Below are positions 10,600 to 62,999 of a stretch of DNA of 64,000 bases, in pieces. The DNA is from a bacterium (lineage in GTDB: Bacteria > Hydrothermota > UBA3073 > JACQXS01 > JAQTXJ01). The translations under genes and the position numbers were made by a program. The notes under the pieces were generated by a model, which saw only the letters and a program-made list of their open reading frames with translations, did no database searches and was not told where the DNA came from. Every line of letters starts with the position of its first letter. Within the stretch, counting starts at the first letter, position 1. The DNA lies in assembly GCA_041649255.1 (NCBI GenBank), contig JBAZNK010000004.1, positions 28,647 to 92,646 on the forward strand. Direction: 5' to 3'.

Positions 10600-10674
10600 T
10601 TTTTCTCCTTTATCCCGCCTTGGACGGGATTATCCCAAATTTGTGCTGGGGGACAAATCCTTTGTCCTCTAACC

Positions 10675-10723
10675 AAAAAACAATGCTACAGGGGAAGAAG
10701 AAATCCTCTCCACCTGTAGCAAT
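10675..10723 (-). terminator. Probable intrinsic terminator/attenuator downstream of flagellin
   Basis: Inverted repeat CTACAGG...CCTGTAG (10690-10723) followed on the minus strand by CAUUGUUUUUUGG. Two more hairpins lie before fliS (10645-10661 GGACAAAtccTTTGTCC; 10606-10626 ATCCCG..CGGGAT). Confidence 0.45.
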
Positions 10724-10747
10724 TGTTTTATTGTTTTTCATTGTCCT

Positions 10748-11620
10748 TTATTTACCAAGCAATCCGAGTACGAATGAAGGCGCTGTATTCGCCTGTGCAA
10801 GTCCGGCTATTGCAGATTGCTGCAATATTGTATACTTCGTTACAGCCAACTGTTCCTCAGCCATGTCAGCGTTCATTATTCTTGAATAAGTTGCCCAAAC
10901 ATCTGATTCATGCTGAGCAATTCTTCCTTCCTTCACTAATAGACGCTCTTCATAAGTTCCGATGATATTAACAGCGGACTTATCTACTTTTGCAACAGCG
11001 GTTATAAGTGACGCAAGTAATGAACTTGCTGCCGTAATAGTAGAAACGCTCATCGTAGTAATAGAGGCAACTCCCGTTAACTGTTTGAAAGTTAGTCCAC
11101 TTGCTAAATTGTGAACCGTGAATGAGAGTTTGCTTGTCGCTGAATCGCTCGTTGTACCAACCCATGTTGACCTGTTGGTAGAATAGCTACCTTTCAACAG
11201 ATGCAAGCCTCTATACTGAGTCTGTTCTACAGTCTGGTTTATTTCATTTGCAAGAGATTTGAGTTCAGCCAGGACATTTGCTCTGTCAGTTGTTGACAGC
11301 AAGTCAGATGCTGCCCCTTCTGCAAGGACTGACATCTGAGTAAGCATATCCTTAATCGCTACTGCACCTGTTTCTGCAGTAATAAAAAGATTTTGGGTGT
11401 CTTGCACGTTTGTAAGTGCTTTGTGCCACCTCAATGCTGTTCCCTCTAACTCTTTTGCAATAGAAAATTCTGCCGGACCTTCGCCTGCTGAGTTTAACCT
11501 TTTGCCTGTGGCAATTCTGAGTTGGTGAGTACCTAACTCACGGTTAACTGCATTCAAGGCGTTTGATGCATTCATCGCACCCATATTGGTGCGGATTCTC
11601 GCTAAGTCTCCGAATGGCAT
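10748..11620 (-). CDS. fliC: Flagellin (short, 290 aa; N- and C-terminal D0/D1 helices, small variable region)
   Basis: N-terminus (LRIATGKRLNSAGEGPAEFSIAKEL) and C-terminus (IMNADMAEEQLAVTKYTILQQSAIAGLAQAN) match conserved flagellin domains; GGAGG RBS at 11635-11640. Confidence 0.85.
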   Translation of the reverse strand: MPFGDLARIRTNMGAMNASNALNAVNRELGTHQLRIATGKRLNSAGEGPAEFSIAKELEGTALRWHKALTNVQDTQNLFITAETGAVAIKDMLTQMSVLAEGAASDLLSTTDRANVLAELKSLANEINQTVEQTQYRGLHLLKGSYSTNRSTWVGTTSDSATSKLSFTVHNLASGLTFKQLTGVASITTMSVSTITAASSLLASLITAVAKVDKSAVNIIGTYEERLLVKEGRIAQHESDVWATYSRIMNADMAEEQLAVTKYTILQQSAIAGLAQANTAPSFVLGLLGK

Positions 11621-11646
11621 TTAATTTTCCATCACCTCCTGAATTG

Positions 11647-11674
11647 ATTATCGCTTACTTTCCCCAAAACTTTA
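11647..11674 (-). promoter_or_regulatory. Sigma-28 (FliA)-like promoter for flagellin
   Basis: Minus strand reads cTAAAGTTT-N12-GCGATAAt, close to the TAAAGTTT-N11-GCCGATAA consensus; ~15 nt upstream of the RBS. Confidence 0.45.
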
Positions 11675-11782
11675 GAAAAAAATTAAAAAACCTTAAATTA
11701 TTTTTTCATACCCGAAAATAAATAACCGGAAACCTGTATATAAATGCGACTTAACGGGTATGTGCAGAACTATTATATAATT

Positions 11783-11813
11783 TGTAGGGAACGCATATAT
11801 GCGTTCCCTACAA
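11783..11813. promoter_or_regulatory. Perfect 13-bp-arm palindrome TAGGGAACGCATA|TATGCGTTCCCTA between the island and the flagellin promoter (operator or terminator)
   Basis: Directly visible in sequence; loop-less and without a flanking U-tract, which favours a dimeric protein-binding site over a terminator. Confidence 0.5.
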
Positions 11814-11905
11814 ATTGATATTCAATTCTTCATTGAACTTGTGTGCCGGATACTCACTTAGCTGGGCCAGATGAGGGATTTCTTACCAGCTCTTGGATGT
11901 AATCC

Positions 11906-13405: not shown

Positions 13406-13542
13406 ATAAAAGTTCCCCTTGCTTATTCTTCAATATCAACTTCTATTCTTCTTTTGTTCCCGAGCCTTTAGCTTGCTTAGAACTGGTTTCCCACCCTTAC
13501 TCGTCATTCCCGTGTAAGCGGGAATCCAGTATTTTTGCTGTT

Positions 13543-14520: not shown

Positions 14521-14726
14521 TTATCTCCTCTTTTCTGCACCTGTCTGCCATTTTTTGACAGATATTCCCCATGTTTTATTTCTAATATATATATTTGATA
14601 TTTAATTTTTTTACAGACTCTTTGGTAATAACCATTAGAGCTCGTTATCCCGTTCCAGCGGGGGATTTTTAATTTATCTCTCATTATGCATGCCCATTTC
14701 TCACCCACTACTCATATCTCTTTCTC

Positions 14727-18484: not shown

Positions 18485-20368
18485 TTATTTCTCGGGCAAG
18501 GGTTTTACAGCAACTACCCTGAGGAAGTGGTCCAGACTTTTCCCCTCTTTCAGAGCCACATCAGTATGGTAATCTCGTGGTATTTCTTCAACAATATTCT
18601 CAAACCCACTTTCTTTAAGAAAACGGGATAACCTCTCAAAATTATACCCTGCTAAATGACAATCCGCTCTGCTACGTTGCCCGCCAAAAATCATCGTCAT
18701 ATTATGGTCTGTTGGGGCATTCATATAATCTTCAATACATTTATCCCCATTTGGACATTCAATAATCAGCTTCCCCCCGGGTTGAAGCACCCTGAACCAT
18801 TCTTTCAACATTTGTTTAGCTTCCGGTATTAAAACATGTTCTATCATATGATATGATTCTACCAGTTCCGCGCTATTACCCTGGAATCCTAAGCTACATG
18901 CATCCATTATTACATCTGCAAACGAATTCTTGTAAAGGTCAATATTAACGTATCCTTTTTTATATACTTTACCACAGCCAATATGTAACCTTAGCTTGTT
19001 ATCACAAACCTGTACTAACGGCGCATAATCATTTAATTCTTCTTTCATCACCCTTAATAAATTTCGTTTCAGGGTATTAAAATCAAACTTTTCACATACC
19101 AACTTTCTTGCATTTTTACTCATTTTTTCCACTAACCGTGGATTATTGGCCAAAAAATTCATTTTTATTGCCAGGTCATTTAGATTAACAATTTCCTCTG
19201 GGAAAGCAATATTATCTTCCCTCACTACTTTATTTGCAACCTCTACCAATAATCCATTATGTTTATTTTTAACAAACTCATTCATAGGAGGAGCATTTGT
19301 AGTGATTGCCGGCAAACCACAAGCTAAGGCTTCTATCAAACTCAAGCCCAATCCATCTAATTTGGACGGGTAAACATAAATTAATCCTTTATGGTAGAGT
19401 CCAGGTAGAGGAATTGTTCCCACACAATAAGTAATTCTTTCATTCTTTTGGACAATCCCAACAATTTCTAACGGTAGTTTTTCCAATCCAATCTGGGAAT
19501 GAATTAAAAGAGAGAAATGAGGATTATATTTTGATATCGCATCAAAAGCCAGTATAACCGCAGGAGTCATCTTACGATAATTTATTCCCACCCATCCCGC
19601 ATTATGGAAAAAAGTATATTGAGCTTTTTCTTTTTTAGGCATAAAAAGCTCGGTATCTGTTCCCCAACCAATATAATGAGCATTGCAAAAATCTTTAACA
19701 AGGTCAAAAGTTCTTTTCGTAGAACACAATACCATATCATACAGTTTCATATAAGGCTTCCAATCTTCCTTATAATAATCAAGATAAGTTATGATTTTTA
19801 CTCCTTTTTGTTTACAAAAAATAATTAGATTCCAATCATACTCTTCATTAAATATAATCATACCTATATTGTTATCGTCAATCCATTTTGCAATTATATT
19901 GTGTGGGATAAGATACTGATTAAAAGTTGTAAGGTTCGAAACTTCCCATTCTCCCTTTGTTTTTAAAGAAGGATTCTCAGGCGTTCCTCCATTCCTTGCA
20001 AAAACAAAAGTATTGTATTCTTCGGACAGCGCATCTCTTATTGTTTTTGTGACATACGCCTGACCTCTTTCAAACCACAAACTTATAAATCCAATATTAA
20101 GTTTATTAGAACATTTTTTTCCCTTTCTTGCTTGGAGTTTTGCTTCGCCAGAAACATTAGTGCAAGTTATCCTGCTCCGCCGTGCTTGCTTACAAAGTCT
20201 ATATATAGAAGAATAACGTTCTTTTACTTCAGGATGTGCTTCTGTTATTGCATCTAACCTAAGCATTGCTTCTTCTGTTTTCCCGCACTTAATTAATGCC
20301 CGGATACGAACTATTTTATCATCAAAATTCATATTCCTCAATTGCCACTCTAATCCCGAGTTTGCCAC
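18485..20368 (-). CDS. Bifunctional protein: N-terminal TPR-like helical module + GT-B glycosyltransferase + C-terminal class I SAM-dependent methyltransferase
   Basis: 627 aa; GT-B motif (GLGLSLIEALACGLPAITT); C-terminal MTase motifs (LHIGCGKVYKKGYVNIDL motif I; LQPGGKLIIECPN). Confidence 0.65.
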   Translation of the reverse strand: MANSGLEWQLRNMNFDDKIVRIRALIKCGKTEEAMLRLDAITEAHPEVKERYSSIYRLCKQARRSRITCTNVSGEAKLQARKGKKCSNKLNIGFISLWFERGQAYVTKTIRDALSEEYNTFVFARNGGTPENPSLKTKGEWEVSNLTTFNQYLIPHNIIAKWIDDNNIGMIIFNEEYDWNLIIFCKQKGVKIITYLDYYKEDWKPYMKLYDMVLCSTKRTFDLVKDFCNAHYIGWGTDTELFMPKKEKAQYTFFHNAGWVGINYRKMTPAVILAFDAISKYNPHFSLLIHSQIGLEKLPLEIVGIVQKNERITYCVGTIPLPGLYHKGLIYVYPSKLDGLGLSLIEALACGLPAITTNAPPMNEFVKNKHNGLLVEVANKVVREDNIAFPEEIVNLNDLAIKMNFLANNPRLVEKMSKNARKLVCEKFDFNTLKRNLLRVMKEELNDYAPLVQVCDNKLRLHIGCGKVYKKGYVNIDLYKNSFADVIMDACSLGFQGNSAELVESYHMIEHVLIPEAKQMLKEWFRVLQPGGKLIIECPNGDKCIEDYMNAPTDHNMTMIFGGQRSRADCHLAGYNFERLSRFLKESGFENIVEEIPRDYHTDVALKEGKSLDHFLRVVAVKPLPEK

Positions 20369-20514
20369 GGGATATGTATATTTATTTTATATAACAAAAA
20401 ACTAAGCTTTGTCAATGCTAATTTTTCAACAAATTCTTAGCTGCTTAGAGTTTGTTATCCTTAATAGAGTGAAGAATTACAAGTTTTTATCTGTCTGCAT
20501 TAGTCTAAGTGGTT

Positions 20515-27640: not shown

Positions 27641-27758
27641 ATAATTTTTATCTGTGACTATCCTTCTACTCCCTGCCTGACGGCAGGCAGGTGTGCAAAT
27701 CTGTGTGCTAATTTTTCTGTTTTTGTTTTTCTTTTCCATTTTCTCTTTGGTCCACTCC

Positions 27759-42208: not shown

Positions 42209-42263
42209 TTAGAAAATAGAAAAATAGGACATCCCGCTTTGACGGGTATCTGATAAATCCTTT

Positions 42264-43792: not shown

Positions 43793-44005
43793 TGGCAAAT
43801 TGACATATAGGAACAAAATGCCACATTGTAACATAAGGCAAAAAGCCACACCTCGGGATTATTTATCATCACAGTAAAATAACTCAGGGGTATATTGCTA
43901 CACTAGACTGTGGCTAAATAGAACATTGGGGCAAATTGACATATGAGAACAAAAGCCACACCGCAAAGTAAGGCAAAAAGCCACACCTCGAGACTGTTTA
44001 TTATC
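43793..44005. repeat. Two ~75-bp direct repeats (period ~138 bp) with recurring GCCACA/TGTGGC motifs inside a CA-only intergenic region; candidate enhancer (UAS) elements
   Basis: GGCAAATTGACATAT[A/G]GGAACAAAA..GCCACA...TAAGGCAAAAAGCCACACCTCG[G/A]GA.T.TTTAT at 43795-43870 and 43933-44008; long-range inverted repeat GGGGCAAATTGACA (43935) / TGTCAATTTGCCCC (44052). Confidence 0.6.
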
Positions 44006-44150
44006 CTATTAATACAACTTAGGGGTAAATCGCCACATATAGTTGTGTCAATTTGCCCCTGTGGTTATTTAGGACATACTGATTTGTATGATGATGTAAC
44101 TATTTGTTGGGTGTGGGTTTTAGGGTATTAGTGTGAATAATTTTGTATAT

Positions 44151-44165
44151 TGGCACATTTGTTGC
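44151..44165 (+). promoter_or_regulatory. Sigma-54 promoter (TGGCAC-N5-TTGC) upstream of the second activator gene
   Basis: TGGCACatttgTTGCTATTATAATAT; exact -24/-12 consensus; lies inside the track ORF start (44143), so the real start is ATG 44182. Confidence 0.55.
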
Positions 44166-44181
44166 TATTATAATATCTACT

Positions 44182-45315: not shown

Positions 45316-45330
45316 TGGCACGAAATTTGC
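45316..45330 (+). promoter_or_regulatory. Sigma-54 promoter (TGGCAC-N5-TTGC) of the flgB operon
   Basis: TGGCACgaaatTTGCTATTATAAATAT, 19 nt upstream of the flgB ATG; same downstream TATTATAA(A)TAT box as the 44151 promoter. Confidence 0.6.
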
Positions 45331-45348
45331 TATTATAAATATATTACA

Positions 45349-46287: not shown

Positions 46288-46394
46288 AAAGAAATGCAAA
46301 TTTTAGATTCTAGACTTTGCCTGCCTGCCGGTAGGCAGGGATTTGGGATAAGTACGATCTCGGCATCCACCTTAGGTGGAGATAGGAGGGTTAA

Positions 46395-48226: not shown

Positions 48227-48281
48227 AAACAAGATAACGAGTTCTAATGGCTATCGCCAAAGAACTTGTAATAAATAATAC

Positions 48282-49857: not shown

Positions 49858-51177
49858 ATGACAGAACTTATATTGGATAAATATTTAACAAAAATAGAGA
49901 ATACGGACTTTATATCTCATAGCGGTAAAGTTACGGGTGTAACAGGACTTATAATTGAAGCACGTGGACTTCATGCAGCAATTGGGGAAGTTTGCAATCT
50001 AATAAATAATAACAATCCCCACGAAAGCATAAAAACTGAAGTAGTTGGTTTCAAGGGCGACAATACACTTCTTATGCCACTTGGTTCAATGGATGGTATT
50101 TCTCCCGACACTGAAGTTATTACAACAGGCAAGCCATTGGAAATACCTGTCAGCAATGCTCTTCTTGGAAGGGTATTAGACGGGCTTGGGAATCCAATAG
50201 ACGACAAGGGACCTCTTTTAAGTTCCGAAAACAGGTGTGTATATAATGTAGCGCCTCATCCTTTAAAACGTTCAAGAGTAAAAGAGGTTTTACCTACCGG
50301 GATAAAGGCAATAGATGGTTTTTTAACTTGCGGAAAAGGCCAAAGGATAGGAATATTTTCCGGAAGCGGCATAGGGAAGAGTACATTAATGGGTATGATT
50401 GCGAGGTATTGCAAAGCCGATATAAACGTAATTGGACTGACAGGGGAAAGGGGAAGGGAAGTTAAAGACTTCATCGAAAAAGATTTAAAAGAAGGTATTA
50501 GCAAATCGGTCGTAGTGGTTTCCACTTCCGAACAACCTGCTCTTATAAGGTTAAAAGGAGCATTTACGGCTACTACGATAGCAGAATATTTCAGAGATAA
50601 GGGTTATAACGTATTATTATTATTGGATTCCATAACTCGTATAGCAATAGCACAAAGAGAGGTAGGGTTATCCATTGGGGAACCGCCAACAACAAAAGGA
50701 TTTACTCCTTCGGTTTTTGCGCTTTTACCAAAACTTCTTGAGCGTTCGGGAATGTCTGATACCGGTAGTATTACAGGTTTTTACACCGTTCTTGTCGAAC
50801 AGGGAGATATGGATGAGCCAATATCGGATGCCGTAAGAGCAATTCTTGATGGACACATCGTTCTTTCAAGAAAACTTGCCCATGCAAATCATTATCCTGC
50901 GATAGACATTCTTTCGAGTATTTCAAGACTAATGATAGACATTGTCCCCAAAGAACACAATAATGCAGCAAGGTTAACGAGAGACATTCTTGCATTACAT
51001 AGAGAAACAGAAGACCTTATAAATATTGGGGCATATGTCAGACATTCCAACCCCAAAATAGACCACGCAATAGATATGATTGATAAAATTAACGATTTTG
51101 CAGAACAAGAAATCGATTTAAAAGCAGAGTATAAGCAAACCATTCAACAATTAATTGAGCTTAGCAAGTCCGCCTGA
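49858..51177 (+). CDS. fliI: Flagellum-specific ATPase FliI
   Basis: 439 aa; Walker A GSGIGKST, Walker B LLLLDSITR, T3SS ATPase signature. Confidence 0.9.
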   Translation: MTELILDKYLTKIENTDFISHSGKVTGVTGLIIEARGLHAAIGEVCNLINNNNPHESIKTEVVGFKGDNTLLMPLGSMDGISPDTEVITTGKPLEIPVSNALLGRVLDGLGNPIDDKGPLLSSENRCVYNVAPHPLKRSRVKEVLPTGIKAIDGFLTCGKGQRIGIFSGSGIGKSTLMGMIARYCKADINVIGLTGERGREVKDFIEKDLKEGISKSVVVVSTSEQPALIRLKGAFTATTIAEYFRDKGYNVLLLLDSITRIAIAQREVGLSIGEPPTTKGFTPSVFALLPKLLERSGMSDTGSITGFYTVLVEQGDMDEPISDAVRAILDGHIVLSRKLAHANHYPAIDILSSISRLMIDIVPKEHNNAARLTRDILALHRETEDLINIGAYVRHSNPKIDHAIDMIDKINDFAEQEIDLKAEYKQTIQQLIELSKSA

Positions 51178-51194
51178 GGCGGAGTTGATAAAAA

Positions 51195-51641: not shown

Positions 51642-51673
51642 TCCGCCAAGGCGGGACTAAAAAAAATATAATT

Positions 51674-52465
51674 ATGGCTGACGAAGAACAAAAACAAGAG
51701 TTAACTAACTCTGAATCCACTGCTCCGGATAACAAGGCAGGGAAAAAAACAAAGCCTAAAAAAGGTGGGTTTTCGATTAAATTCCCTAAAAAAGCTTCGG
51801 GCGGTAAAAAAAATAAATCCAGAGACGAAAGAGATGATAGAGACAAGGAAAAGAAAACAGATGGGAAAGATGCTCCAAAAGAAGGGACCGGGAAAAAGCC
51901 CCCCAAAAAAATGTTATTATTAATAATTATAGGTGCCGCTGTTATTATTATTGCAGCAGCAGGATTTTTTGTCTTAAAACCGAAGCTCGCATCAAAAAAA
52001 AACATAGCAGAACAAGCAGATTCTTCAAAAGTTGCTTTGGCAGATACATTCAAAACCGATTCTTTACTTACAGATACATCTTCTTACAGTCTTTCTAATG
52101 CCGACACCAACAAATTAAATGCCGACTCTATTCTTGCTCAAGATGAAACAACTCAAAATTCTAATTCTTCACAACTTGATGTCGCTATAAAACAAGCGGA
52201 AGACAAGACAATACTCGAAAAACAATTATTAGAAACAAAACGTGTAAATGACAGCATCGTCAAAGAATCCGAACGTAAACTTACCAAGACTCTGGAATCT
52301 ATGGAACCTGAGGGCATGAGCGCCATTATGGATAGTCTTGATGATAATACCGTTATTGATTTATTATCAAAAATGAAACCTAAGAATGTTTCCGAGATAT
52401 TAAGCGTTATGAATCCGGGCAGGGCGGCTAAACTTATAAGAGACATTAACTCTAGAAACAAATGA
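51674..52465 (+). CDS. YlxF/MotE-family flagellar protein (Lys-rich N-terminus, one TM, C-terminal MgtE_N-like domain)
   Basis: 263 aa; C-terminus SAIMDSLDDNTVIDLLSKMKPKNVSEILSVMNPGRAAKLI resembles the MgtE N domain; same position as ylxF in the B. subtilis fla/che operon. Confidence 0.55.
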   Translation: MADEEQKQELTNSESTAPDNKAGKKTKPKKGGFSIKFPKKASGGKKNKSRDERDDRDKEKKTDGKDAPKEGTGKKPPKKMLLLIIIGAAVIIIAAAGFFVLKPKLASKKNIAEQADSSKVALADTFKTDSLLTDTSSYSLSNADTNKLNADSILAQDETTQNSNSSQLDVAIKQAEDKTILEKQLLETKRVNDSIVKESERKLTKTLESMEPEGMSAIMDSLDDNTVIDLLSKMKPKNVSEILSVMNPGRAAKLIRDINSRNK

Positions 52466-54957
52466 ATAATAATACTAATATAATTTCTAAAAACTGTCTA
52501 CCTGTTTCAAAAGGGAAGACAAAAACTGCTTTACTTAAAAATACCCAATTTAACTCTCTTAATAATCTAAAAGGGGAAAAATATCAGGACAATAGAGCAA
52601 GTTTTAATGATGAACTATTTAAGGTCTTAACTGTTCCGGGTATGTCTTCCCTTAAAGAATCTTCGATGAAAATATCTACACCCAACAATACTACTTCTAA
52701 CCGGTTGAATTCAAATTCTTCTTCCACCTCATTAAACAATACGGCAACCCGTCTTACATCCTCAACTGCCAAGGAGACAGAAACTACGAGCACCGCCAAG
52801 AATATTTCTACCAAGTTAAATACAAATTCAAATTCTTCTTCCACCTCATTAAACAATACAACAACCCGTCTTACATCCTCAACTGCCAAGGAGACAGGAA
52901 CTACGAGCACCGCCAAGAATATTTCTACCAAGTTAAATACAAATTCAAATTCTTTTTCCACCTCATTAAACAATACAGCAACCCGTCTTACGTCCTCAAC
53001 TGTCAAGGAGACAGGAACTACGAGCACCGCCAAGAAAGAGACTACGACATTGGGGATTGATAAATCGCCAAGCATATCTATTCCGGAAGCCTTGAAGACA
53101 AATAAACCGGATTCCAGTTCTCTCCCTACCTACGTCAGGCAGGCAGGGAATAATAACCCTATCGCTACACCTATTAATCTTTCCGAAACAAACAAACAAA
53201 CAACTTCAGTATTTTTTAATAAAAATATAAAATTGACTGTCACAGCTGAACATCCTATATCATATGATAAAAACACCGCGAATCAAATTCAGTCACAGTC
53301 TAATTCTGACTTAGCAAGCAAAGTATCTGATAAGACAAACAAACAAACTGAACCAACAAGTAATAACACAATCCCGGGGCATCAAATTTCCGCTTCAAAA
53401 ATAATTACAACAAGTACTTCTATACCTACCGGATTAAAAGCAGGTTCAAATTCTTCCCCATCTTCATATTTAAATGACGCCTCTACCGCAAAAGCACCGG
53501 TTACTTCTAAAACACTTTTTCTTAAGGAATCTACGACAGTACATCAGAAAACAGACAAAAACATAACAACTAAACTTTTATCCTTAAATGACAAAGAAAC
53601 AGGGACTACGCCCACTACAAAGGTAGGGGCTACGACATTAGGAATTGATAAATCGCCGAGCATATCCATTTCGGAAGTCCTGAAGACAAATAAATCTGAT
53701 GCTATCAATACCCGCCAAGACAGGATAAGGAATTTATCATCTACGATAAATTCTTCCCGCGTTAAGTTTGATAATTTATCAAGTTCCACGCCTATTAATA
53801 TTTCCGACTTAAACAAGCAAATATCTACAGTATTTTCCAATAAAAATACTGCAAGTCAAATTCAGCCAGAATCTCGTTCTGACTTAGCAAATAAGGTATC
53901 TGACAAACCAAAAGAGAAAACAAAACCAATAAACAGTAAAGCAATTTCGGGTTCTGTTACAAGCGAACTTTCCGTTCAACCGCGTTCAGAGGAAATACCT
54001 GTCATTCGCCTCAAGCAAACCAACAGTACGGTATCTTCTTCGTCCATTTTTCCACCAAAGGCGGATGAGTCCATTCTTCCAACAATACTCCAAACAAAAG
54101 TCGAACAAGTAGCTCAAGGGAGGCTCAATATAAGACACTCTGCTCCGATAGAGAGAACTGATACCGGAACGGATAAAAAAATTAATACTGACAATAACTT
54201 ATCTAAAAATATATTTATTAAAGAGCAGGTTATTCCATTATCTACGCCAAGACAAGATGTTTCATATTCAAAAACCTATTCAAATATGTTCAATACGAAT
54301 GACAGGAATACGGATAACCTTAGCGTTCAAAAGCAATCACAGAAAACCGTTTCCAATGTATCTTTTAATACTGCCGGGTCAGAACCATTATCACCTAACA
54401 ACGACGTAATTAATATTCTCCAGTCAAAGGAAAACGCATCTAAGACTGACATTACGCCTAAAAACACTTCTTTTACAGGGTCTTCTACCACTCAAACAAT
54501 CTTTCAATCTAGTTTTCCCTTCATTTCAAATCATATTAAAACCTCTTTAACGACAACTAAAACAGGAGATTTGATAACAACTACTTTCAATCTCAAACCG
54601 GAGCATTTAGGCAAATTAAAAATAAGTTTAATTTCGCATAATAATTTTACTCAAGACAAAACTTCTATATCAGAGCTCAAACTTGTCGTTGATAACATTG
54701 CGACCAAACAATTATTAGAATCTAATATTTCACAACTTAAATCTGCTCTTCTTTCAGAAGGGGTTATGATTCAAGAATTTAATATTTCTCTTAATCAAGA
54801 TGCGTCTGATAATGCACATCAATCTTTGCCAGGGTACAATCATTCAAAATTATCTACACTATCTTCCATCAAAGACGAGTCTAATTTTGATAGGAATGTA
54901 ATTCCATCGGGTATTAACTTAGCTTATGAAAAAGGAAAAATTGATTTATTTATTTAA
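52462..54957 (+). CDS. fliK: Flagellar hook-length control protein FliK (unusually long, 831 aa, repeat-rich N-terminal ruler region)
   Basis: C-terminal Flg_hook domain (TTFNLKPEHLGKLKISLI...LKLVVDNIATKQLLESNISQLKSALLSEGVMIQEFNIS); Ser/Thr/Asn-rich N-terminal region with tandem repeats. Confidence 0.7.
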   Translation: MNNNTNIISKNCLPVSKGKTKTALLKNTQFNSLNNLKGEKYQDNRASFNDELFKVLTVPGMSSLKESSMKISTPNNTTSNRLNSNSSSTSLNNTATRLTSSTAKETETTSTAKNISTKLNTNSNSSSTSLNNTTTRLTSSTAKETGTTSTAKNISTKLNTNSNSFSTSLNNTATRLTSSTVKETGTTSTAKKETTTLGIDKSPSISIPEALKTNKPDSSSLPTYVRQAGNNNPIATPINLSETNKQTTSVFFNKNIKLTVTAEHPISYDKNTANQIQSQSNSDLASKVSDKTNKQTEPTSNNTIPGHQISASKIITTSTSIPTGLKAGSNSSPSSYLNDASTAKAPVTSKTLFLKESTTVHQKTDKNITTKLLSLNDKETGTTPTTKVGATTLGIDKSPSISISEVLKTNKSDAINTRQDRIRNLSSTINSSRVKFDNLSSSTPINISDLNKQISTVFSNKNTASQIQPESRSDLANKVSDKPKEKTKPINSKAISGSVTSELSVQPRSEEIPVIRLKQTNSTVSSSSIFPPKADESILPTILQTKVEQVAQGRLNIRHSAPIERTDTGTDKKINTDNNLSKNIFIKEQVIPLSTPRQDVSYSKTYSNMFNTNDRNTDNLSVQKQSQKTVSNVSFNTAGSEPLSPNNDVINILQSKENASKTDITPKNTSFTGSSTTQTIFQSSFPFISNHIKTSLTTTKTGDLITTTFNLKPEHLGKLKISLISHNNFTQDKTSISELKLVVDNIATKQLLESNISQLKSALLSEGVMIQEFNISLNQDASDNAHQSLPGYNHSKLSTLSSIKDESNFDRNVIPSGINLAYEKGKIDLFI
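52711..53040 (+). repeat. 2.8 tandem copies of a 117-bp (39-codon) in-frame repeat inside fliK
   Basis: The marker TCAAATTCTT recurs at 52711, 52828 and 52945; unit encodes NSNSSSTSLNNTATRLTSSTAKETETTSTAKNISTKLNT; a diverged larger-scale copy lies at ~53590-53900. Confidence 0.8.
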
Positions 54958-55009
54958 GTCCGGGTTCCGGGCTCCCGAACATTTTCGGGGAAATGAAGGA
55001 GGTGATTAA

Positions 55010-56098: not shown

Positions 56099-56217
56099 GG
56101 CCGGACCTTGCCATAGTGGCAAGGAAGCCTCTTTATGTCGCTGAATGACTGATGCGGCATACTTTCCGCCCGAAAGGCGGAAAGTCTCGCCAAGGCGGGA
56201 CAAGGAGGAGGGGGAAA

Positions 56218-58263: not shown

Positions 58264-58353
58264 GAATAAGTAGAGAGCAGTAAGTTAAGGTAGAGAGTTA
58301 ATTATTCCGCTTCAGGCGGATAAGAGTTAAGTCCGTCTGAAGCGGATAAGAAT

Positions 58354-59139
58354 ATGGATATAACAACGATTGCAGGCGTAGCGATAGGGTTTTACCTATT
58401 ATTCACTGCTATATTGCAGGGAGGATCGGCCAAAATTTTTATTGATATTCCTGCAATAATGATTACCGGAGGCGGTACACTTGCAGCCGTGCTTATTAAT
58501 TACCAATTTACGGATGTTATCAGGATACTCAAAGTTACTGCAAAAGCTTTTATACATAAACCTATTGCACCCGTAAAAACAATTAATCTTTTATTAGAGA
58601 TGAGTAAAAAAGCTCGTAGAGACGGGTTTATTGCACTTGAAGAAGATTTAAAAAAAGTTGAAGATAAATTTTTAAGGGTTGCCCTCAGGTGTGTAGTTGA
58701 CGGCAGCCCGCTTGACAGGACTCAGAAACTATTAGAAACAGAAGTAGAGAATTTAGAGTTAAGACATAGCAAAGGGATAGGAATATTTAAAGCCGGGGGG
58801 AAATTTGCGCCGGCTTTTGGGTTACTTGGAACGTTAATCGGGCTGGTTCAAATTGGACGAGTCGTAAACGAGCCATCTGCAATTGTTTCAAGCATAGCAG
58901 TAGCATTTGTGTCGACTTTTTACGGAGTAATACTTTCGAATTTAATTTTTCTCCCCATAGCAGGTAAATTAGATGGATTAACGCAAGAGGAGACATTAGA
59001 GAAGAGGCTTATAATAGAAGGAATTCTATCAATACAGTCCGGAGAACCGACACTTGTAATAGAAGACCAATTAATAGCATTTTTGCCTCCGGAAGAAAGA
59101 GAAAAAAGAATAAAAATAAAAATGGAAGAGGAAGAGTAA
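58354..59139 (+). CDS. motA: Flagellar motor stator protein MotA (no motB follows)
   Basis: 261 aa; MotA/TolQ/ExbB channel motifs (AFGLLGTLIGLVQIG; ILSNLIFLPIAGKL). Confidence 0.8.
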   Translation: MDITTIAGVAIGFYLLFTAILQGGSAKIFIDIPAIMITGGGTLAAVLINYQFTDVIRILKVTAKAFIHKPIAPVKTINLLLEMSKKARRDGFIALEEDLKKVEDKFLRVALRCVVDGSPLDRTQKLLETEVENLELRHSKGIGIFKAGGKFAPAFGLLGTLIGLVQIGRVVNEPSAIVSSIAVAFVSTFYGVILSNLIFLPIAGKLDGLTQEETLEKRLIIEGILSIQSGEPTLVIEDQLIAFLPPEEREKRIKIKMEEEE

Positions 59140-59159
59140 AGAAGGCAGGCACGTAAAAA

Positions 59160-60122
59160 ATGGAAGAAAGAATATTGTCTCAGGAAGAAATTTCCACTTT
59201 GTTAAAAACCGTTCCTAAAAGTAATGAAGATACTCCTTCTAAAGAAAAAAAGATAGAAGAATACGACATCAAGAGATATGTAGGAATTACAAGGGAACAT
59301 TTCCCGATATTTAAAGAAATTAATGAATATTTCGACTTTCTTTTTGAACAATCGGTTGCCACGAGAACGGGAAACTTCATCAATATGATAACTTCTGAGC
59401 CGGAAATCAGCACTCTTGGTGAATTCATTTCTTCGGCATCCAATCCCACTTATATCATTATGTTCAAACTTGACCCTGCGGTTGGCGATGTGTATATGGA
59501 TATTTCGCCTTCGTTTGTACACTCGCTTGTAGATATGGAATTTGGAGGAACCGGCAGAATCAATAAAAATCCACCTGACATCACCATAATTGAACGTGCA
59601 GCTATGCCTAAAATTGCCAGAGCATTACTTGGTGAACTTGAAAAAGCATGGGGAAAATATGTTGCAGTATCTTCAAAAATAGTATCCCAGCAAACCAATC
59701 CATTAACTATAGCTCCACCGGAATCTGTAGTTCCAATTCTCAGTATTTCTTTTACCTTAACAATTGACGATATTCCTATGTCTCTACGAATTGCTTATTC
59801 TTCGGAAATCGCAAGGGCTCTTGCTGCCGAGGTTATAACTCACGAGCGTGTAACGAGAAAAACAGCCAATGCTGAGCTCCAGGAAAAAATCAAGCAGATA
59901 TTAATGCATGCAAGAGTAAATGTTTATGCTGAGCTTGGACGTTCAGGCATTTTTGTTTCTGATTTATTAGAATTGAAAGCAGGTGATATAATCCCTTTAA
60001 ACCTTCATACAGACAGTGAAATAATTGTTTACGTGGAAGATAAAAAGAAGTGGTTTGCCAAAGCAGGCGTTTATAAAATGAGAATGGCATCTAAAATTAC
60101 GCGTCCATACAAAAGGAGGTAA
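59160..60122 (+). CDS. fliM: Flagellar motor switch protein FliM
   Basis: 320 aa; N-terminal LSQEEISTLL CheY-P-binding-like motif, FliM middle domain, C-terminal FliN-like domain. Confidence 0.8.
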   Translation: MEERILSQEEISTLLKTVPKSNEDTPSKEKKIEEYDIKRYVGITREHFPIFKEINEYFDFLFEQSVATRTGNFINMITSEPEISTLGEFISSASNPTYIIMFKLDPAVGDVYMDISPSFVHSLVDMEFGGTGRINKNPPDITIIERAAMPKIARALLGELEKAWGKYVAVSSKIVSQQTNPLTIAPPESVVPILSISFTLTIDDIPMSLRIAYSSEIARALAAEVITHERVTRKTANAELQEKIKQILMHARVNVYAELGRSGIFVSDLLELKAGDIIPLNLHTDSEIIVYVEDKKKWFAKAGVYKMRMASKITRPYKRR

Positions 60123-60516: not shown

Positions 60517-60541
60517 TAAAAACGAGAAGTGAGAGAAAAAG

Positions 60542-61108
60542 ATGAATAACTTAATATTTTTTTTATTAAACCAGTCCGCCTCAGGCGGAACTGACAGGCA
60601 AATGATAAGCGATTCTTCTGCTGCACCCGTATATAAAACTTTACTTGTCCCGACAAATGCAGCAGGTTCATTTTCCAGCATGATTTTTAGAGCCATTGGG
60701 AGTCTTATTGTTGTAATTGCCATAATGTTTGTAATTATATGGCTTCTGCGTAAATTTTCCAGCAAAAATGGATTATTGGGAAAAAGTGGGGGCGAAAAAA
60801 TTATTAATGTAATTGCTAAATCCGCACTTAACTCAAAGCAGGCTATTTATGTAGTTGAGGTTCCGGAACGGATACTTATATTAGGAGTAAGCGGCGACAA
60901 TATAAATATATTATCAGAAATAAAAGAGCCCTCTACAATAAAATCTCTTAAAGAAGGCTCAAAAGAAGGTATATTTGCCCAATACTTAAAGGGATTTACT
61001 TTAAGAGGCAGATCCGCTCCCAATGTGAAAAACAATGCATCGCAGTTGACCGATAAAGAGGCAACATCAGACAGAAGGGATAAACGTGGGTCCGGGTTAT
61101 TGGGATAA
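60542..61108 (+). CDS. fliO: Flagellar biosynthesis protein FliO/FliZ
   Basis: 188 aa; single TM (LIVVIAIMFVIIWLL) followed by a FliO-like region; immediately upstream of fliP. Confidence 0.6.
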   Translation: MNNLIFFLLNQSASGGTDRQMISDSSAAPVYKTLLVPTNAAGSFSSMIFRAIGSLIVVIAIMFVIIWLLRKFSSKNGLLGKSGGEKIINVIAKSALNSKQAIYVVEVPERILILGVSGDNINILSEIKEPSTIKSLKEGSKEGIFAQYLKGFTLRGRSAPNVKNNASQLTDKEATSDRRDKRGSGLLG

Positions 61109-61110
61109 AA

Positions 61111-61875
61111 ATGAAGAAACTACTATTAAAAATACAGAACAAGATTCTTTCCTATCCTCATTATCCGTATATATTAACACCTGTTTTATTTATTTTTTTA
61201 CTGTTCATAGCACAACCGCTTTTAGCGGCGAAAACGGTTAGTTTTGATACGCTAACTCCACCAATACAAATTGCGATAGCATTAACGCTTATCCCGTTGA
61301 TTCCTTTTTTACTTTTAACACTCACTTCTTTCACTCGCATAATCATTGTTTTTTCAATGCTTAGAAACGCATTAACGACTCGTTCAGTTCCTCCGAACCA
61401 GGTATTAATAGCGCTTGCATTATTTATGACTTTTTACATAATGAGACCTACTTTTGAAACAATATATAACGATGCGATTAGTCCTTATATTAACAAAGAC
61501 ATCTCTTCGAAAGAAGCAATAGAGAAAGGTATCGCACCTCTCCGCACTTTTATGTTAAAGCAGGTGAGGGAAGAGGATTTAGCTTTATTCGTTCATTTTT
61601 CGGAAGGGAAGAAGCCAACAACCGTAGCCGAAATTCCATTTACTACAATTATGCCGGCTTTTATTACTTCCGAATTAAGAATTTCATTTGAAATGGGATT
61701 TTTAATATACTTACCTTTTTTAATCATAGATTTAGTTTTAGCATCAATATTATTATCTATGGGGATGTTTATGGTTCCGCCTATGATGATTTCAGCACCT
61801 TTAAAATTATTATTATTCATTCTTGTTAACGGTTGGGATTTAATCGTAAAATCTTTAATTACGAGTTTTAGATAA
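61111..61875 (+). CDS. fliP: Flagellar export apparatus protein FliP
   Basis: 254 aa; signal/TM plus conserved FliP motifs (RIIIVFSMLRNALTT; PFLIIDLVLASILLSMGMFMVPP). Confidence 0.9.
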   Translation: MKKLLLKIQNKILSYPHYPYILTPVLFIFLLFIAQPLLAAKTVSFDTLTPPIQIAIALTLIPLIPFLLLTLTSFTRIIIVFSMLRNALTTRSVPPNQVLIALALFMTFYIMRPTFETIYNDAISPYINKDISSKEAIEKGIAPLRTFMLKQVREEDLALFVHFSEGKKPTTVAEIPFTTIMPAFITSELRISFEMGFLIYLPFLIIDLVLASILLSMGMFMVPPMMISAPLKLLLFILVNGWDLIVKSLITSFR

Positions 61876-61877
61876 CT

Positions 61878-62147
61878 ATGGATCAAGGAATGGCAATTTC
61901 TATTTTTAAGGATACTTTAATAACAACGCTTGTTTTATCTTTACCAATGTTGCTTGCAGGATTGGTAATAGGCGTTCTTATATCTATTTTTCAGGCTGTT
62001 ACTGCAATAAAAGAAATGACATTATCTTTTGTACCTAAGATTCTGGCAGTGGGCGCCGTAATGTATTTTACTTTACCGTGGATGCTAACAAAGATGGTAG
62101 AATTTACAGCAAGAATGTTTGCCCAGATGGAACATCTAGTTAAATAA
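61878..62147 (+). CDS. fliQ: Flagellar export apparatus protein FliQ
   Basis: 89 aa, two TM helices; typical FliQ sequence. Confidence 0.85.
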   Translation: MDQGMAISIFKDTLITTLVLSLPMLLAGLVIGVLISIFQAVTAIKEMTLSFVPKILAVGAVMYFTLPWMLTKMVEFTARMFAQMEHLVK

Positions 62148-62149
62148 CT

Positions 62150-62908
62150 ATGATACTAGAGCTAACTCTTATGAAAGGCATTTTTATATTTTTCAGGACT
62201 CTTGGAGTTATTATTACTTCTCCTATTCTTGGCGATAGGGGTTTTCCTGCCACTGCAAAAATAGCGCTTGCCCTATCAATTGCTTTTTTACTTACGCCGG
62301 TTCTCAATATAGAAGTGCCGAATCCTGATTCTATTATTACATTAATTCTTATTATCTCAAGAGAAATATTAATAGGCGTAGCTATTGGTTCGGTAGTACT
62401 TTTCATTTTTATGGGCGTGCAATTAGCAGGTTCCATTATGGGTTTCCAGATGGGAATGTGGTTAGCCGAAATGGTTGATCCTACTTTTGGGATAGAGATA
62501 CCTGTTATTGCTCAATTTAATTATTTATTTGCCATTATGATTTTTATTTGTGTAAACGGGCATCTTATCGTTTTAAACGCGGTAAGGCAAACTTTCAAAT
62601 TGCTACCTCTCGGGACTTTTTCGTTAAGCAATTCTTTTATGGAACAATTTGTTGCGACGGGAAGCAGCATTTTTAGAGTAGGTTTTGAAATAGGGGCACC
62701 GATTATTGGTGTTTTGTTATTAATCTCTATTGCCCTTGGTCTTATTTCCCGTGCTATTCCTGAATTTGACGTTCTTATGGCTTCAATTCCACTTACCATT
62801 GGCGTCGGGTTATGGCTTATGGCAGCATCTCTACCTTACATAGCCGTAACCGTTATAAAGATGATTAATAAATTAGAACCAACCATATATAATCTATTCA
62901 GACCTTAA
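62150..62908 (+). CDS. fliR: Flagellar export apparatus protein FliR
   Basis: 252 aa polytopic membrane protein following fliQ; FliR-like. Confidence 0.85.
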   Translation: MILELTLMKGIFIFFRTLGVIITSPILGDRGFPATAKIALALSIAFLLTPVLNIEVPNPDSIITLILIISREILIGVAIGSVVLFIFMGVQLAGSIMGFQMGMWLAEMVDPTFGIEIPVIAQFNYLFAIMIFICVNGHLIVLNAVRQTFKLLPLGTFSLSNSFMEQFVATGSSIFRVGFEIGAPIIGVLLLISIALGLISRAIPEFDVLMASIPLTIGVGLWLMAASLPYIAVTVIKMINKLEPTIYNLFRP

Positions 62909-62999
62909 AATATGAAAAGCATAACGATTAATAAAGAGTCCGGAGTTAAATATTGGACAAACAATTATCCCGTCAGGACGGGAATGAAGGAAACAAATT

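Follow-up and report, generated by a model that had tools for sequence, protein, structure and literature searches.

REP/REPIN sequences are extragenic palindromes which are mobilised by RAYT transposases (IS200/IS605-like Y1 enzymes); REP sequences are thought to be handled as single-stranded DNA hairpins and are known to affect mRNA stability secondarily. Rickettsia palindromic elements (RPEs), with a length of 100–150 nt, are tolerated in frame inside protein-coding genes. The small dispersed repeats (SDR) of heterocyst-forming cyanobacteria, reportedly described by Elhai et al. in Genome Research in 2008, are said to be mobile units of ~21–27 nt which cause no target duplication, differ in presence or absence between relatives and sit nested in other repeats, where they extend hairpins. 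REP/REPIN sequences are discussed too in the work on dRS3/NTS/SRM elements, small hairpin repeats which are found in intergenic DNA of many phyla and whose arms matter more than their loops (PMC11893778). SRM elements measure 20–50 nt (PMC11893778, Nat Commun 2025), and the NTS/SRM hairpin is the published target of the Ssn GIY-YIG ssDNA nucleases, which are encoded by small single-domain genes with flanking repeats (PMC11893778). In yeast mitochondria, mobile GC clusters, GC-rich palindromic mini-elements, have spread through intergenic regions in a very AT-rich genome and vary from strain to strain (PMC4478555).

For the window analysed here (the whole stretch of 64,000 nt), a first-pass annotation had described three families (A, B and C) of GC-rich mini-palindromes at 14 sites. 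With a probability of roughly 0.75, most of them are very small (about 15–28 nt) hairpin DNA repeats of the REP or dRS3-NTS type, which fall into at least three sequence families and are not private to this genome. A GC-rich inverted repeat was present at all 14 sites, although the coordinates were off by 0–11 nt and several sites did not fit the proposed consensus: those at 14648 (stem of 4–5 bp) and 42226 (bulged) deviate from it, the site at 13510 reads ATTCCCGTGTAAGCGGGAAT and lies at 13506–13525, those at 51645 and 56188 have loops of 4 nt, and the one at 58330 contains one wobble pair and one mismatch. Families B and C hold as true sequence families, whereas family A is heterogeneous. 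The hairpins have predicted stabilities between -5 and -16 kcal/mol.

Perfect 6-bp stems with at least five G/C and a loop of 3–8 nt occur eight times in the window, compared to 0.99 ± 1.04 (maximum 4) in 100 dinucleotide shuffles, and intergenic DNA alone, which makes up ~8% of the window, contains five hairpins where 0.11 ± 0.34 are expected. For 5-bp stems the count was 21 versus 9.6 in shuffles. Individual motifs exceeded the shuffles as well: TCCGCCNNNGGCGGA with up to two mismatches (8 versus 0.48), TCCCG-N5-8-CGGGA (3 versus 0.07), CCAAGGCGGGA (3 versus 0.35) and the published SRM search string (1 versus 0.05). The objection that the motifs might be no commoner than in shuffled DNA, which the first-pass annotation had itself raised, thus does not apply, because the counts clearly exceed the shuffles, intergenic DNA included. 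Short palindromes are common, the weak members at 14648, 42231 and 58332 are singly unremarkable, and the window stems from a metagenome assembly; that the hairpins are chance palindromes in low-GC sequence or products of library preparation or assembly is nevertheless hardly credible. The counts lie above every shuffle, the flanking DNA is normal genomic sequence, control palindromes of matched composition are essentially absent, and orthologues with point substitutions occur in independent assemblies from different samples (the window, L082, L083, L084 and L260), and on the shuffle counts, the assemblies and the control palindromes such an origin was rejected. Other low-GC flagellar loci contain 0–1 comparable hairpins per 20 kb, so the density is lineage-specific.

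Copies at 46366 and 20353 and two decayed ones in fliK, at 54051 and 53125, had not been part of the initial list.

Family A combines several dRS3-like cores with a single canonical NTS/SRM element:

13502–13529, plus strand: canonical NTS/SRM-type element CGTCATTCCCGTGTAAGCGGGAATCCAG, between two glycosyltransferase genes
10612–10630, minus strand: family A-like ATCCCGTCCAAGGCGGGAT, separated by 2 nt from the fliS Shine-Dalgarno sequence, which follows it
14648–14666, no strand assigned: family A-like TCCCGTTCCAGCGGGGGAT with a weak 4–5 bp stem, intergenic, T-tract on the plus strand only
20353–20373, no strand assigned: family A-like ATCCCGAGTTTGCCACGGGAT; it overlaps the GTG start annotated for the gene at 18485–20368 (minus strand)
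42231–42249, plus strand: bulged family A-like hairpin ATCCCGCTTTGACGGGTAT, ahead of the first sigma54-activator gene
62966–62985, plus strand: family A-like TATCCCGTCAGGACGGGAAT, in the fliR/flhB gap (flhB ATG at 63000), just upstream of the Shine-Dalgarno sequence

The element at 13502–13529 matches the published SRM search string exactly and the NTS consensus at 26 of 28 positions, and it encloses a dRS3 core, ATTCCC-N8-GGGAAT, at 13506–13525. Its orthologue in L260 (4189–4216) carries a C-G pair in place of a G.T pair. For most members of family A, no published consensus fits. The hairpin at 10612–10630 shares CCAAGGCGGGA with the copies at 51646 and 56190 and is the last of three in a 52-nt block, which is missing as a whole at the orthologous L260 junction; around 14648–14666 the orthologous L260 region is not alignable. 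The hairpin at 42231–42249 is identical in L082, and another GC-rich hairpin is found at that place in L083.

Family B consists of constant arms, TCCGCC and GGCGGA, around loops of 2–5 nt with free sequence. Its copies in the window are the following:

46366–46380, plus strand: family B-like TCCACCTTAGGTGGA, preceding the Shine-Dalgarno sequence of fliE (real ATG at 46393)
51168–51184, plus strand: family B, GTCCGCC-TGA-GGCGGAG, at fliI/fliJ
51642–51657, plus strand: family B-like TCCGCCAAGGCGGGAC, directly after the fliJ stop codon
54051–54065, plus strand: family B-like TCCACCAAAGGCGGA, within the fliK coding sequence
56161–56185, plus strand: family B, ACTTTCCGCC-CGAAA-GGCGGAAAGT, upstream of flgE, with a 10-bp stem (-15.7 kcal/mol)
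56184–56201, plus strand: family B-like GTCTCGCCAAGGCGGGAC, immediately before the flgE Shine-Dalgarno sequence (ATG at 56214)
58306–58346, plus strand: family B tandem pair, TCCGCTTCAGGCGGATAAGAGT and TCCGTCTGAAGCGGATAAGAAT, before motA
60574–60590, plus strand: family B, GTCCGCC-TCA-GGCGGAA, in the N-terminal coding region of fliO

At 51168–51184 the fliI stop codon makes up the loop, the final two FliI residues are encoded by the 5′ arm, and the 3′ arm, which is Shine-Dalgarno-like, lies 10 nt before the fliJ ATG. The fliO copy encodes SASGG, as had been proposed.

The unit of family C is a discrete palindrome of 20 nt, CCTGCCTGCCGG(C/T)AGGCAGG, mostly a perfect 20-bp dyad including its centre:

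27672–27691, no strand assigned: family C 20-mer CCTGCCTGACGGCAGGCAGG, in an intergenic region, 68 nt beyond the stop codon of the gene at 27759–28805 (minus strand)
46320–46339, plus strand: T variant of the family C 20-mer, CCTGCCTGCCGGTAGGCAGG, in the flgC/fliE gap
53125–53143, minus strand: decayed family C-like copy CCTGCCTGACGTAGGTAGG, inside fliK

When compared with close relatives (FliJ 94%, 86% and 75% identical), most hairpins are seen to have been inserted or deleted as units. This is clearest for the family C 20-mer, an exact block CCTGCCTG(A/C)CGGTAGGCAGG which is present or absent between identical flanks. Between fliE and fliF, L083 and the independent assembly L084 share an exact 20-nt insertion with identical flanks. 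The family C copy at 46320–46339 is present in both of these and missing from L082, which reads GACTTTG directly followed by GATTTGGG. The 52-nt block before fliS, a hairpin between fliS and fliD and the block between fliF and fliG likewise behave as present-or-absent units; the latter is

48237–48269, plus strand: hairpin block between fliF and fliG

and it occurs in the window and in L082 (with a compensating T-A to G-C change) and is missing from L083. Among the family B copies, the pairing at 46366–46380 has decayed in L082 and L083. The hairpin at 51168–51184 is found in L082, where its 3′ arm carries a 10-nt duplication, and in L083, and is missing from L085; the one at 51642–51657 is kept in L082, altered in L083 and missing from L085. 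L083 has an unrelated hairpin in place of 56161–56185 and a different 14-bp palindrome in place of the pair at 58306–58346. In-gene counterparts of the fliK copy at 54051–54065 exist in L083 (TCCGCCCCGGGCGGA) and L086, and the fliO copy is shared with L083, its hairpin being decayed there (TCCGCCTCAGGGGGGG).

Two pairs of hairpins outside the three families behave differently:

54958–54991, plus strand: two non-family hairpins, GTCCGGGTTCCGGGC and TCCCGAACATTTTCGGGGA, between fliK and flgD
56106–56160, plus strand: two non-family hairpins, CCTTGCCATAGTGGCAAGG and ATGTCGC...GCGGCAT, after the PF12611 gene

In the first pair, compensating changes and G.U pairs that form on the sense strand keep both hairpins in L083 and also in L086 (FliJ 43% identical), and those of the second are also conserved with compensating changes. 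This non-family minority may be true RNA elements, a possibility which for the fliK–flgD hairpins follows from their conservation.

It could be argued that the mini-palindromes in general are RNA elements which evolved in place and tune the polycistronic flagellar mRNA as stabilisers or processing sites, by occlusion of Shine-Dalgarno sequences or by translational coupling. The hairpins lie almost solely in intercistronic spacers, those at 10612, 56184 and 62966 end 1–2 nt before a Shine-Dalgarno sequence, the fliI stop codon forms the loop of one hairpin whose 3′ arm is Shine-Dalgarno-like, some stems contain G.U pairs that work on the sense strand only, and pairing in the fliK–flgD and PF12611–flgE junctions is kept by compensating changes even in a distant relative. 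Yet these conserved, covarying hairpins fall outside families A–C, whereas relatives with otherwise the same operon lack the family members or have them replaced or decayed; in L085, fliI, fliJ and mgtE_N follow each other with gaps of 11 and 8 nt and no hairpin. The same sequences also occur in unrelated genomes, phage contigs and non-flagellar contexts and inside other hairpins. No sense-strand T-tract (U-tract in the mRNA) follows the family B or C hairpins inside the flagellar operon, and the family C variant whose orientation can be told is not biased towards the sense strand of the genes next to it. An origin as RNA elements is therefore unlikely. The attenuator, mRNA-stability and processing roles suggested at first find no support in these data; the T-tracts at 13530 and 14668, to which attention had been drawn, do exist, but they are antisense to the genes around them. 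That some hairpins are held with compensating changes and several abut a Shine-Dalgarno sequence or stop codon is a point against mobile repeats and fits an RNA role for a subset.

Outside this lineage, the family C 20-mer was found in at least 120 metagenome stretches and 53 stretches of viral contigs (contig GC 31–71%), and at least 120 viral stretches contained the extended NTS-like motif. The two free positions of family C are strongly skewed, with 47 + 42 perfect palindromes and 28 + 14 T variants among the matches listed. Copies avoid ORFs (25 of 82, compared to 55.3 ± 3.6 at random positions) and favour hairpin tips, 41 of 141 lying inside an enclosing stem (19.7 ± 3.9 by chance). The T variant adjoins the 3′ arm of the enclosing hairpin seven times and the 5′ arm never (p = 0.016, from only seven cases). 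Further copies sit within other repeats, within orphan tRNA arms or within one another, and in L237 one and the same host hairpin occurs with a plain loop and also with family B or family C at its tip. Family B co-occurs with family C: 18 copies were counted in 0.93 Mb of family C-selected contigs and none in 1.33 Mb of controls, while composition-matched control palindromes reached 0–1 in the same comparison.

An identical sequence in very different genomes is typical for conserved protein-binding sites, and a perfect dyad goes beyond what an RNA hairpin, which would not need a paired centre, demands. Both would suit double-stranded DNA operators of a dimeric flagellar or global regulator, conserved across phyla like parS or CIRCE. 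Such operators are, however, very improbable here, as the units are inserted and deleted exactly and nest in each other, in loops of other repeats and in tRNA fragments, the sites lie within operons and not at promoters, the free 2–5 nt loops of family B would shift the half-site spacing, and some contigs carry several copies per 10 kb.

A candidate partner of family C emerged from its neighbourhood. Of 11 small GIY-YIG gene loci examined (Pfam PF01541, E = 2e-18 and 3e-15), 7 have a copy next to the gene within a partial tRNA copy; these seven are not all independent, because L383 is a close relative of L171. The genes are stand-alone and embedded in partially duplicated tRNA genes. The seven include four of five clade members from a sampling blind to palindromes; these four had family C a few tens of nucleotides upstream, again in a partial tRNA copy, and the fifth had a family B-like CCCGCC-N3-GGCGGG instead. 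Small GIY-YIG ORFs numbered six in family C-selected loci, six in SRM-selected loci and zero in 1.33 Mb of controls. Three GIY-YIG genes on family C-bearing contigs had no adjacent copy, and the only case of family B with a nuclease partner is the family B-like one in L389. The family C-linked nucleases resemble UPF0213-type proteins, their closest solved relatives, and only their N-terminal core is alignable with the SRM-linked ones, so they are at most putative members of Ssn. About 150 kb from the lineage of the window contained neither a GIY-YIG gene nor a recognised transposase candidate, so that for this genome the nuclease link is putative.

Because hairpins are gained and lost among relatives, recur with the same sequence in hundreds of unrelated contigs from environmental bacteria and phages and have GIY-YIG neighbours elsewhere, they are best viewed as mostly REP-like mobile DNA and not as purpose-built signals. 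The designation REP-like in the first-pass annotation is well founded in this respect, as the palindromic families are dispersed, gained and lost as units, and shared with those contigs. We infer that the repeats would spread as DNA, by inserting into the single-stranded loops of hairpins, and that a cognate small GIY-YIG nuclease may act on the hairpin much as SsnA does on NTS. Copies would then accumulate in the few permissive places of an AT-rich genome, namely intercistronic spacers and variable parts of FliK, FliO and FliP. We know of no mechanism that copies a 15–20 nt unit without target duplication. Any regulatory role of the hairpins would be secondary at best. RNA-level side effects, for example of the fliI stop codon in a loop or of hairpins abutting Shine-Dalgarno sequences, are possible, and whatever the hairpins do to flagellar mRNA, through its stability, through masking of Shine-Dalgarno sequences or through coupling at the fliI stop codon, would be incidental or co-opted later.

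With REP sequences the repeats share a similar size, many copies and a location in intergenic spacers within operons. Unlike in REP/REPIN, neither a conserved 5′ GTAG tetranucleotide nor a doublet (REPIN) organisation was seen, the gene adjoining family C encodes a GIY-YIG nuclease and not a Y1 transposase, and the same sequence is common to several phyla, whereas REP families are usually species-specific. In-gene copies in fliO, fliK and, in L083, fliP recall RPEs but measure only 15–20 nt and lie in poorly conserved segments. Cyanobacterial SDR differ in sequences and hosts, and to our knowledge no nuclease link, tRNA link or cross-phylum identity has been reported for them. As in the mobile GC clusters of yeast mitochondria, GC-rich palindromes have multiplied in AT-rich intergenic DNA, but those clusters are organellar, eukaryotic and longer, with unrelated sequences and machinery (PMC4478555). 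Families B and C differ from SRM in sequence, have no oriented CGTCA/TCYRG flanks and no match to the SRM string, and family C is usually a perfect dyad. The family C-linked nucleases belong to a different clade, and their genes sit in partially duplicated tRNA genes, a setting which the main text of PMC11893778 does not mention. The likeness to dRS3/NTS/SRM lies in the element at 13502–13529, which fits the published SRM string (PMC11893778), and in the repeat-gene-repeat layout of family C on both sides of the GIY-YIG gene in L171 and L383.

Several families of tiny hairpin repeats, which are gained and lost as units, are common to unrelated genomes and phage contigs. Considered here are family A, a mixed set of ATCCCG/CGGGAT-like hairpins, family B (TCCGCC-N2-5-GGCGGA, with constant arms and free loops) and family C, a 20-nt palindrome around CCTGCC and GGCAGG. 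The window has a GC content of 35.2% and carries on its plus strand a sigma54-driven flagellar operon (flgB, flgC, fliE-F-G-H-I-J, an MgtE_N gene, fliK, flgD, a PF12611 gene, flgE, motA, fliM, fliN, fliO-P-Q-R and flhB) and on its minus strand flagellin, fliS and fliD, followed by glycosyltransferase genes. In nearly all sizeable intercistronic gaps of the flagellar operon, one to three stem-loops separate the stop codon of the preceding gene from the Shine-Dalgarno (SD) sequence of the following one. A GC-rich inverted repeat was present at all 14 sites which the first-pass annotation had listed as REP-like mini-palindromes, although the listed coordinates were up to 11 nt off and several sites fell outside the consensus given for them. 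The excess over shuffled sequence, the check proposed there, was borne out: the window contains eight perfect 6-bp stems with at least five G/C, as compared to 0.99 ± 1.04 in dinucleotide shuffles. The family B pattern TCCGCCNNNGGCGGA occurs eight times with up to two mismatches (0.48 in shuffles) and TCCCG-N5-8-CGGGA three times (0.07 in shuffles), while intergenic DNA alone, about 8% of the window, holds five hairpins where 0.11 ± 0.34 were expected. Rfam 15 gave no match at the gathering threshold across the 64 kb, and a tRNA scan of the same 64 kb was empty. Individual hairpins of the window include:

13502-13529, plus strand: family A copy with the sequence of a canonical NTS/SRM element, CGTCATTCCCGTGTAAGCGGGAATCCAG
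fliI/fliJ junction, plus strand: family B hairpin GTCCGCC-TGA-GGCGGAG, the loop of which is the stop codon TGA
before flgE and before motA, plus strand: tandem family B units
upstream of fliS, minus strand: hairpin ending 2 nt short of the SD sequence

The source lineage is a deep one, with a best FliI match of 67% identity among 185,579 species representatives and a ribosomal protein L3 that is at most 50% identical to that of any named taxon. Eighty other flagellar loci (1.33 Mb), taken from the FliI search of species representatives, served as control set. Control loci with less than 40% GC contained zero to one such hairpins each, so that the abundance of hairpins is a trait of the present lineage rather than of flagellar operons in general. 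Related loci were obtained via FliJ (L082 with 94%, L083 and L084 with 86%, L085 with 75% and L086 with 43% identity) and via L3 (L260, which belongs to the same genome as L083 and is syntenic with the left part of the window). Both the window and L083/L084 carry the family C 20-mer between flgC and fliE; it is missing in L082, where GACTTTG is directly followed by GATTTGGG. Between fliE and fliF, L083 and the independent Logan assembly L084 carry a second family C copy as an exact 20-nt insertion (CCTGCCTGACGGTAGGCAGG), which is seated in the loop of a small AT hairpin and has flanks identical to those of the window and L082. L085 lacks the family B hairpins of the fliI/fliJ and fliJ/mgtE_N junctions. 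In L083, unrelated hairpins take the place of the family B hairpins upstream of flgE and motA, and the hairpin at 42231 is replaced, too. A 52-nt block of three hairpins before fliS, the hairpin between fliS and fliD and a block between fliF and fliG likewise vary between presence and absence among the relatives. L082 (9963-9999) shows a 10-nt duplication in the 3′ arm of its fliI/fliJ hairpin (GGCGGATTGA followed by GGCGGAG), which looks like slippage at the hairpin.

Copies of the palindromes within genes lie in variable segments of FliK and in FliO, where the copy is read as SASGG and has decayed in L083; L083 has a further one at the 5′ end of fliP. FliK comprises 831 aa in the window (52462-54957), 568 aa in L083 (11289-12995) and 720 aa in L086 (2515-4677), with decayed palindrome copies within the gene, and fliK of L086 includes two identical TCCCGTTTTGGCGGGA units 264 nt apart. 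A perfect palindrome with an 18-bp stem (TAATTTGTAGGGAACGCATATATGCGTTCCCTACAAATTG; 11778-11817), located upstream of the flagellin promoter region, is missing from L260. Sigma54-type promoters (TGGCAC-N5-TTGCT) at 45316-45331 and 44151-44166 lie upstream of flgB and of the second sigma54-activator gene; given the promoter position, the latter gene probably starts with an ATG near 44185 and not with the TTG at 44143. The 620-nt spacer between the two activator genes (43521-44142) is strongly A+C-rich, strand-asymmetric and conserved in L082 and L083, and includes an imperfect repeat of about 150 nt as well as inverted repeats like TGTGGCA...TGCCACA (43791). This spacer had no match in Rfam and may contain enhancer-binding sites or an unannotated RNA. 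Between fliD and rplC lie two paralogous 64-aa ORFs (MEINTSPTFY...; 7681-7875 and 8035-8229, minus strand), both of them conserved in L260/L261, and fliM directly follows motA (58354-60122), with no adjacent motB gene.

The hairpin repeats are extragenic, favour hairpin tips, and their families co-occur. The family C pattern CCTGCCTGNCGGNAGGCAGG was found in at least 120 metagenome stretches and in 53 stretches of viral contigs. Among the matches listed, the contigs had a GC content of 31-71% and the flanks were unrelated. The two free positions of the 20-mer were strongly skewed among these matches, with perfect palindromes accounting for 47 and 42 and one T variant, an orientable, non-dyad version, for 28 and 14. 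ORF-like stretches were avoided, as only 25 of 82 listed copies lay inside them, where random placement gives 55.3 ± 3.6. Of 141 distinct listed copies, 41 were surrounded by a stem of 5 bp or more (19.7 ± 3.9 with re-paired flanks), and such enclosed copies usually abut one arm directly. Where the orientable T variant was enclosed, it abutted the 3′ arm seven times and the 5′ arm never (p = 0.016; n = 7 among the matches listed). Family C copies are nested within one another, within loops of other repeat families and within orphan tRNA arms. In five contigs (L095, L096, L128, L235 and L236) a family C copy occupies the loop of another widespread repeat (CCCCTCTCC...GGAGAGGG, then GGGGGTGAGG), which demonstrates nesting between repeat families. 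The base frequencies of the flanks revealed no conserved tetranucleotide around family C. Short tandem repeats of the CAAAG/CACAAAG type flank palindromes in several unrelated contigs (L086 1327-1582; near a family C copy in L091, L140 and L166) and may represent another small repeat family.

Family B, the flanks of which are variable, had no copy in the 1.33 Mb of control loci. It occurred 18 times in 0.93 Mb of contigs chosen for family C alone, five times in 0.78 Mb of contigs selected for the NTS/SRM motif and six times in 117 kb of the window's lineage, while three composition-matched control palindromes had zero to one copies in every set. A single host hairpin repeat of the GC-rich contig L237 comes in three forms, its loop being plain or tipped by family B or by family C, and in L302 family B is located in the loop of an NTS-type element.

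Judged by its sequence, the family A copy at 13502-13529 belongs to the already known NTS/SRM kind of hairpin repeat. It matches the published SRM string HGTCWYN(0-2)YYVSBRHN(0-5)WNVSBRGN(0-2)RNCYNB exactly (one match in the window versus 0.05 in shuffles), is identical to the 28-nt Neisseria NTS consensus at 26 of 28 positions and has the oriented, non-palindromic flanks (CGTCA upstream, TCYRG downstream) around a core of the dRS3 type (ATTCCC-N8-GGGAAT), dRS3 being another published hairpin repeat. Its orthologue at the same junction in L260 keeps the SRM match, with a G.T pair changed to C-G. No other hairpin of the window matches the SRM string; the remaining family A sites are dRS3-like cores, which lack the oriented flanks, as do families B and C. 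The extended NTS-like motif of this copy was found in at least 120 viral stretches.

The first-pass annotation had proposed that the palindromes act as attenuators or as mRNA-stability or processing sites, and had pointed to T-tracts at 13530 and 14668. These T-tracts lie on the strand antisense to the genes, and the hairpins at 10238, 13506 and 14648 are flagged as terminator-like solely on that strand. No family B or C hairpin of the plus-strand operon is followed by a sense-strand T-tract, as would be expected of an intrinsic terminator. The T variant of family C allows for a further test, as it would keep an RNA stem via G.U pairing on one strand only. With about 14 sense and 10 antisense copies relative to neighbouring genes (crude ORF calls) no sense-strand bias was observed, which argues against selection on family C at the RNA level. 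The ideas of family B being a CsrA site or an anti-SD sequence were dropped from sequence alone, because its GGA is part of the stem and not of the loop and its loops are free. Two family C copies seemingly inside tRNA genes (L150 and L163) raised the idea of tRNA mini-introns, which was rejected as removal of the 20-mer restores no detectable tRNA in either contig; the copy in L150 lies within an orphan T-arm remnant. A minority of hairpins outside families A-C does look like genuine conserved RNA structures. At the fliK-flgD junction (54958-54991) and in the first two hairpins after the PF12611 gene (56106-56160) pairing is kept in L083 through compensating changes, and the fliK-flgD pair, which includes sense-strand G.U pairs, keeps it even in L086. 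They are candidate RNA elements of the intercistronic spacers ahead of flgD and flgE. For the hairpins of the repeat families an effect on flagellar mRNA is plausible, but would be secondary.

One hairpin family, family C, goes together with a small nuclease gene located at tRNA genes. According to PMC11893778, NTS/SRM hairpins are bound and cut, as single-stranded DNA only and on one strand, by small single-domain GIY-YIG nucleases (Ssn; cd10448, GIY-YIG_unchar_3), the genes of which are typically flanked by the repeat. A search with a local HMM in all collected sequence sets yielded small GIY-YIG ORFs in six family C-selected and six SRM-selected loci, none in the 1.33 Mb of controls and none in the roughly 150 kb of this lineage's DNA to which the search extended, a part of the genome. 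The window ORF at 103-387 (94 aa, the length of SsnA) had been considered as a candidate, yet its sequence is not GIY-YIG-like. At five of the six SRM-selected loci an SRM lies within about 100 nt of the gene, which reproduces the published layout. Among the six family C-selected loci, family C lies at the gene in three (L163, L252 and L171), and the proteins of L163 and L252 have GIY-YIG (PF01541) as their only Pfam match. When members of the same protein clade were sampled solely by similarity of the protein, length of the contig and taxon label, with palindromes being ignored, four of five (L383, L384, L385 and L388) had family C a few tens of nucleotides before the start codon; L389, the remaining one, has hairpins of the form CCCGCC-N3-GGCGGG in its place. 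Altogether, family C occurs within about 80 nt of the gene at seven of the 11 loci examined, although L383 is closely related to L171 and the positive loci are thus not all independent.

The taxon labels of these loci include Yanofskybacteria, Nitrospirae and Omnitrophica, and the clade comprises 3,294 database members at E ≤ 1e-8 from Patescibacteria, Omnitrophota, Nitrospirota, Bacteroidota and others. At the GIY-YIG loci the 20-mer is always located within the D-arm of an incomplete tRNA 5′ half duplicated upstream of the gene, and a tRNA copy without the 20-mer follows downstream of the gene wherever the sequence reaches far enough; ARAGORN identified an intact tRNA-Ser, tRNA-Lys or tRNA-Asn in L383, L384, L385 and L163. 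Family C flanks the gene on both sides in L171 and L383. The ORFs together with the duplicated tRNA 5′ half span 760-1190 in L163, 4350-4900 in L171, 480-870 in L252 and about 1900-2400 in L383-L385 and L388. In L385 and L388 the ORF begins directly behind the anticodon loop of the partial copy, as it does in L252, where this loop is slightly altered. The stop codon of the L385 ORF falls within the anticodon loop of the intact tRNA, and L385 has two tRNA-linked GIY-YIG genes arranged in tandem. Only the N-terminal core of the family C-associated nucleases aligns with the SRM-associated ones (30 aa with one homologue), and their closest solved relatives are UPF0213 proteins. A viral-contig search for relatives of the family C-associated nuclease returned the query locus alone.

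A far-reaching interpretation, with a probability of about 0.4, takes families C and B to be the hairpins cognate to this large, uncharacterised nuclease clade, whose genes would form cassettes in partly duplicated tRNA genes. Hairpins of 15-20 nt would be copied into single-stranded hairpin loops genome-wide and thus represent ultra-small mobile DNA, the exact sequence of which is common to several phyla (Patescibacteria, Omnitrophota, Nitrospirota and the present lineage) and their phages. Apart from this interpretation, the hairpins probably spread as DNA by way of single-stranded hairpin intermediates, with cognate small GIY-YIG nucleases assisting, and in this AT-rich genome they probably build up where they are least harmful. 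We know of no copying mechanism for so short a unit. If this view of their spread is correct, the hairpins of the flagellar operon have been left behind by a process acting on DNA and do not reflect operon design, and caution is warranted in interpreting intergenic stem-loops of uncultivated genomes as regulatory RNA. The pairing of a hairpin repeat with a small GIY-YIG single-strand nuclease would then extend to new repeat sequences, a new nuclease clade and a new niche, the tRNA genes, providing new candidate site-specific ssDNA nucleases and the hairpins that they are likely to recognise. It would also point to a 20-nt unit that targets a definite structure, namely the 3′ edge of hairpin loops, and so make the old question of REP-like multiplication directly testable. 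In practical terms, such elements yield falsely "covarying" or "conserved" hairpins, short in-frame protein insertions and spurious small ORFs.

A literature search with the family C sequence retrieved unrelated primer matches only, searches combining GIY-YIG, tRNA and palindromes in CPR or Omnitrophota found nothing relevant, and the main text of PMC11893778 includes neither tRNA nor CCTGCC or TCCGCC. Neither families B and C nor their targeting of hairpin loops nor a GIY-YIG cassette embedded in tRNA genes was found described in the searchable literature. Both families nevertheless fit the general paradigm of REP and NTS-Ssn systems. Like REP sequences, which are extragenic palindromes of 20-40 nt in many copies, they have an intergenic bias and occur in several copies per 10-60 kb. 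However, the 5′ GTAG-type tetranucleotide of REPs has no counterpart at families C and B, and the gene beside family C encodes a GIY-YIG nuclease, whereas that of a REPtron encodes a RAYT, a Y1 transposase. As in the hairpin-nuclease pairing of Ssn systems, family C is found near a small single-domain GIY-YIG gene across distant genomes.
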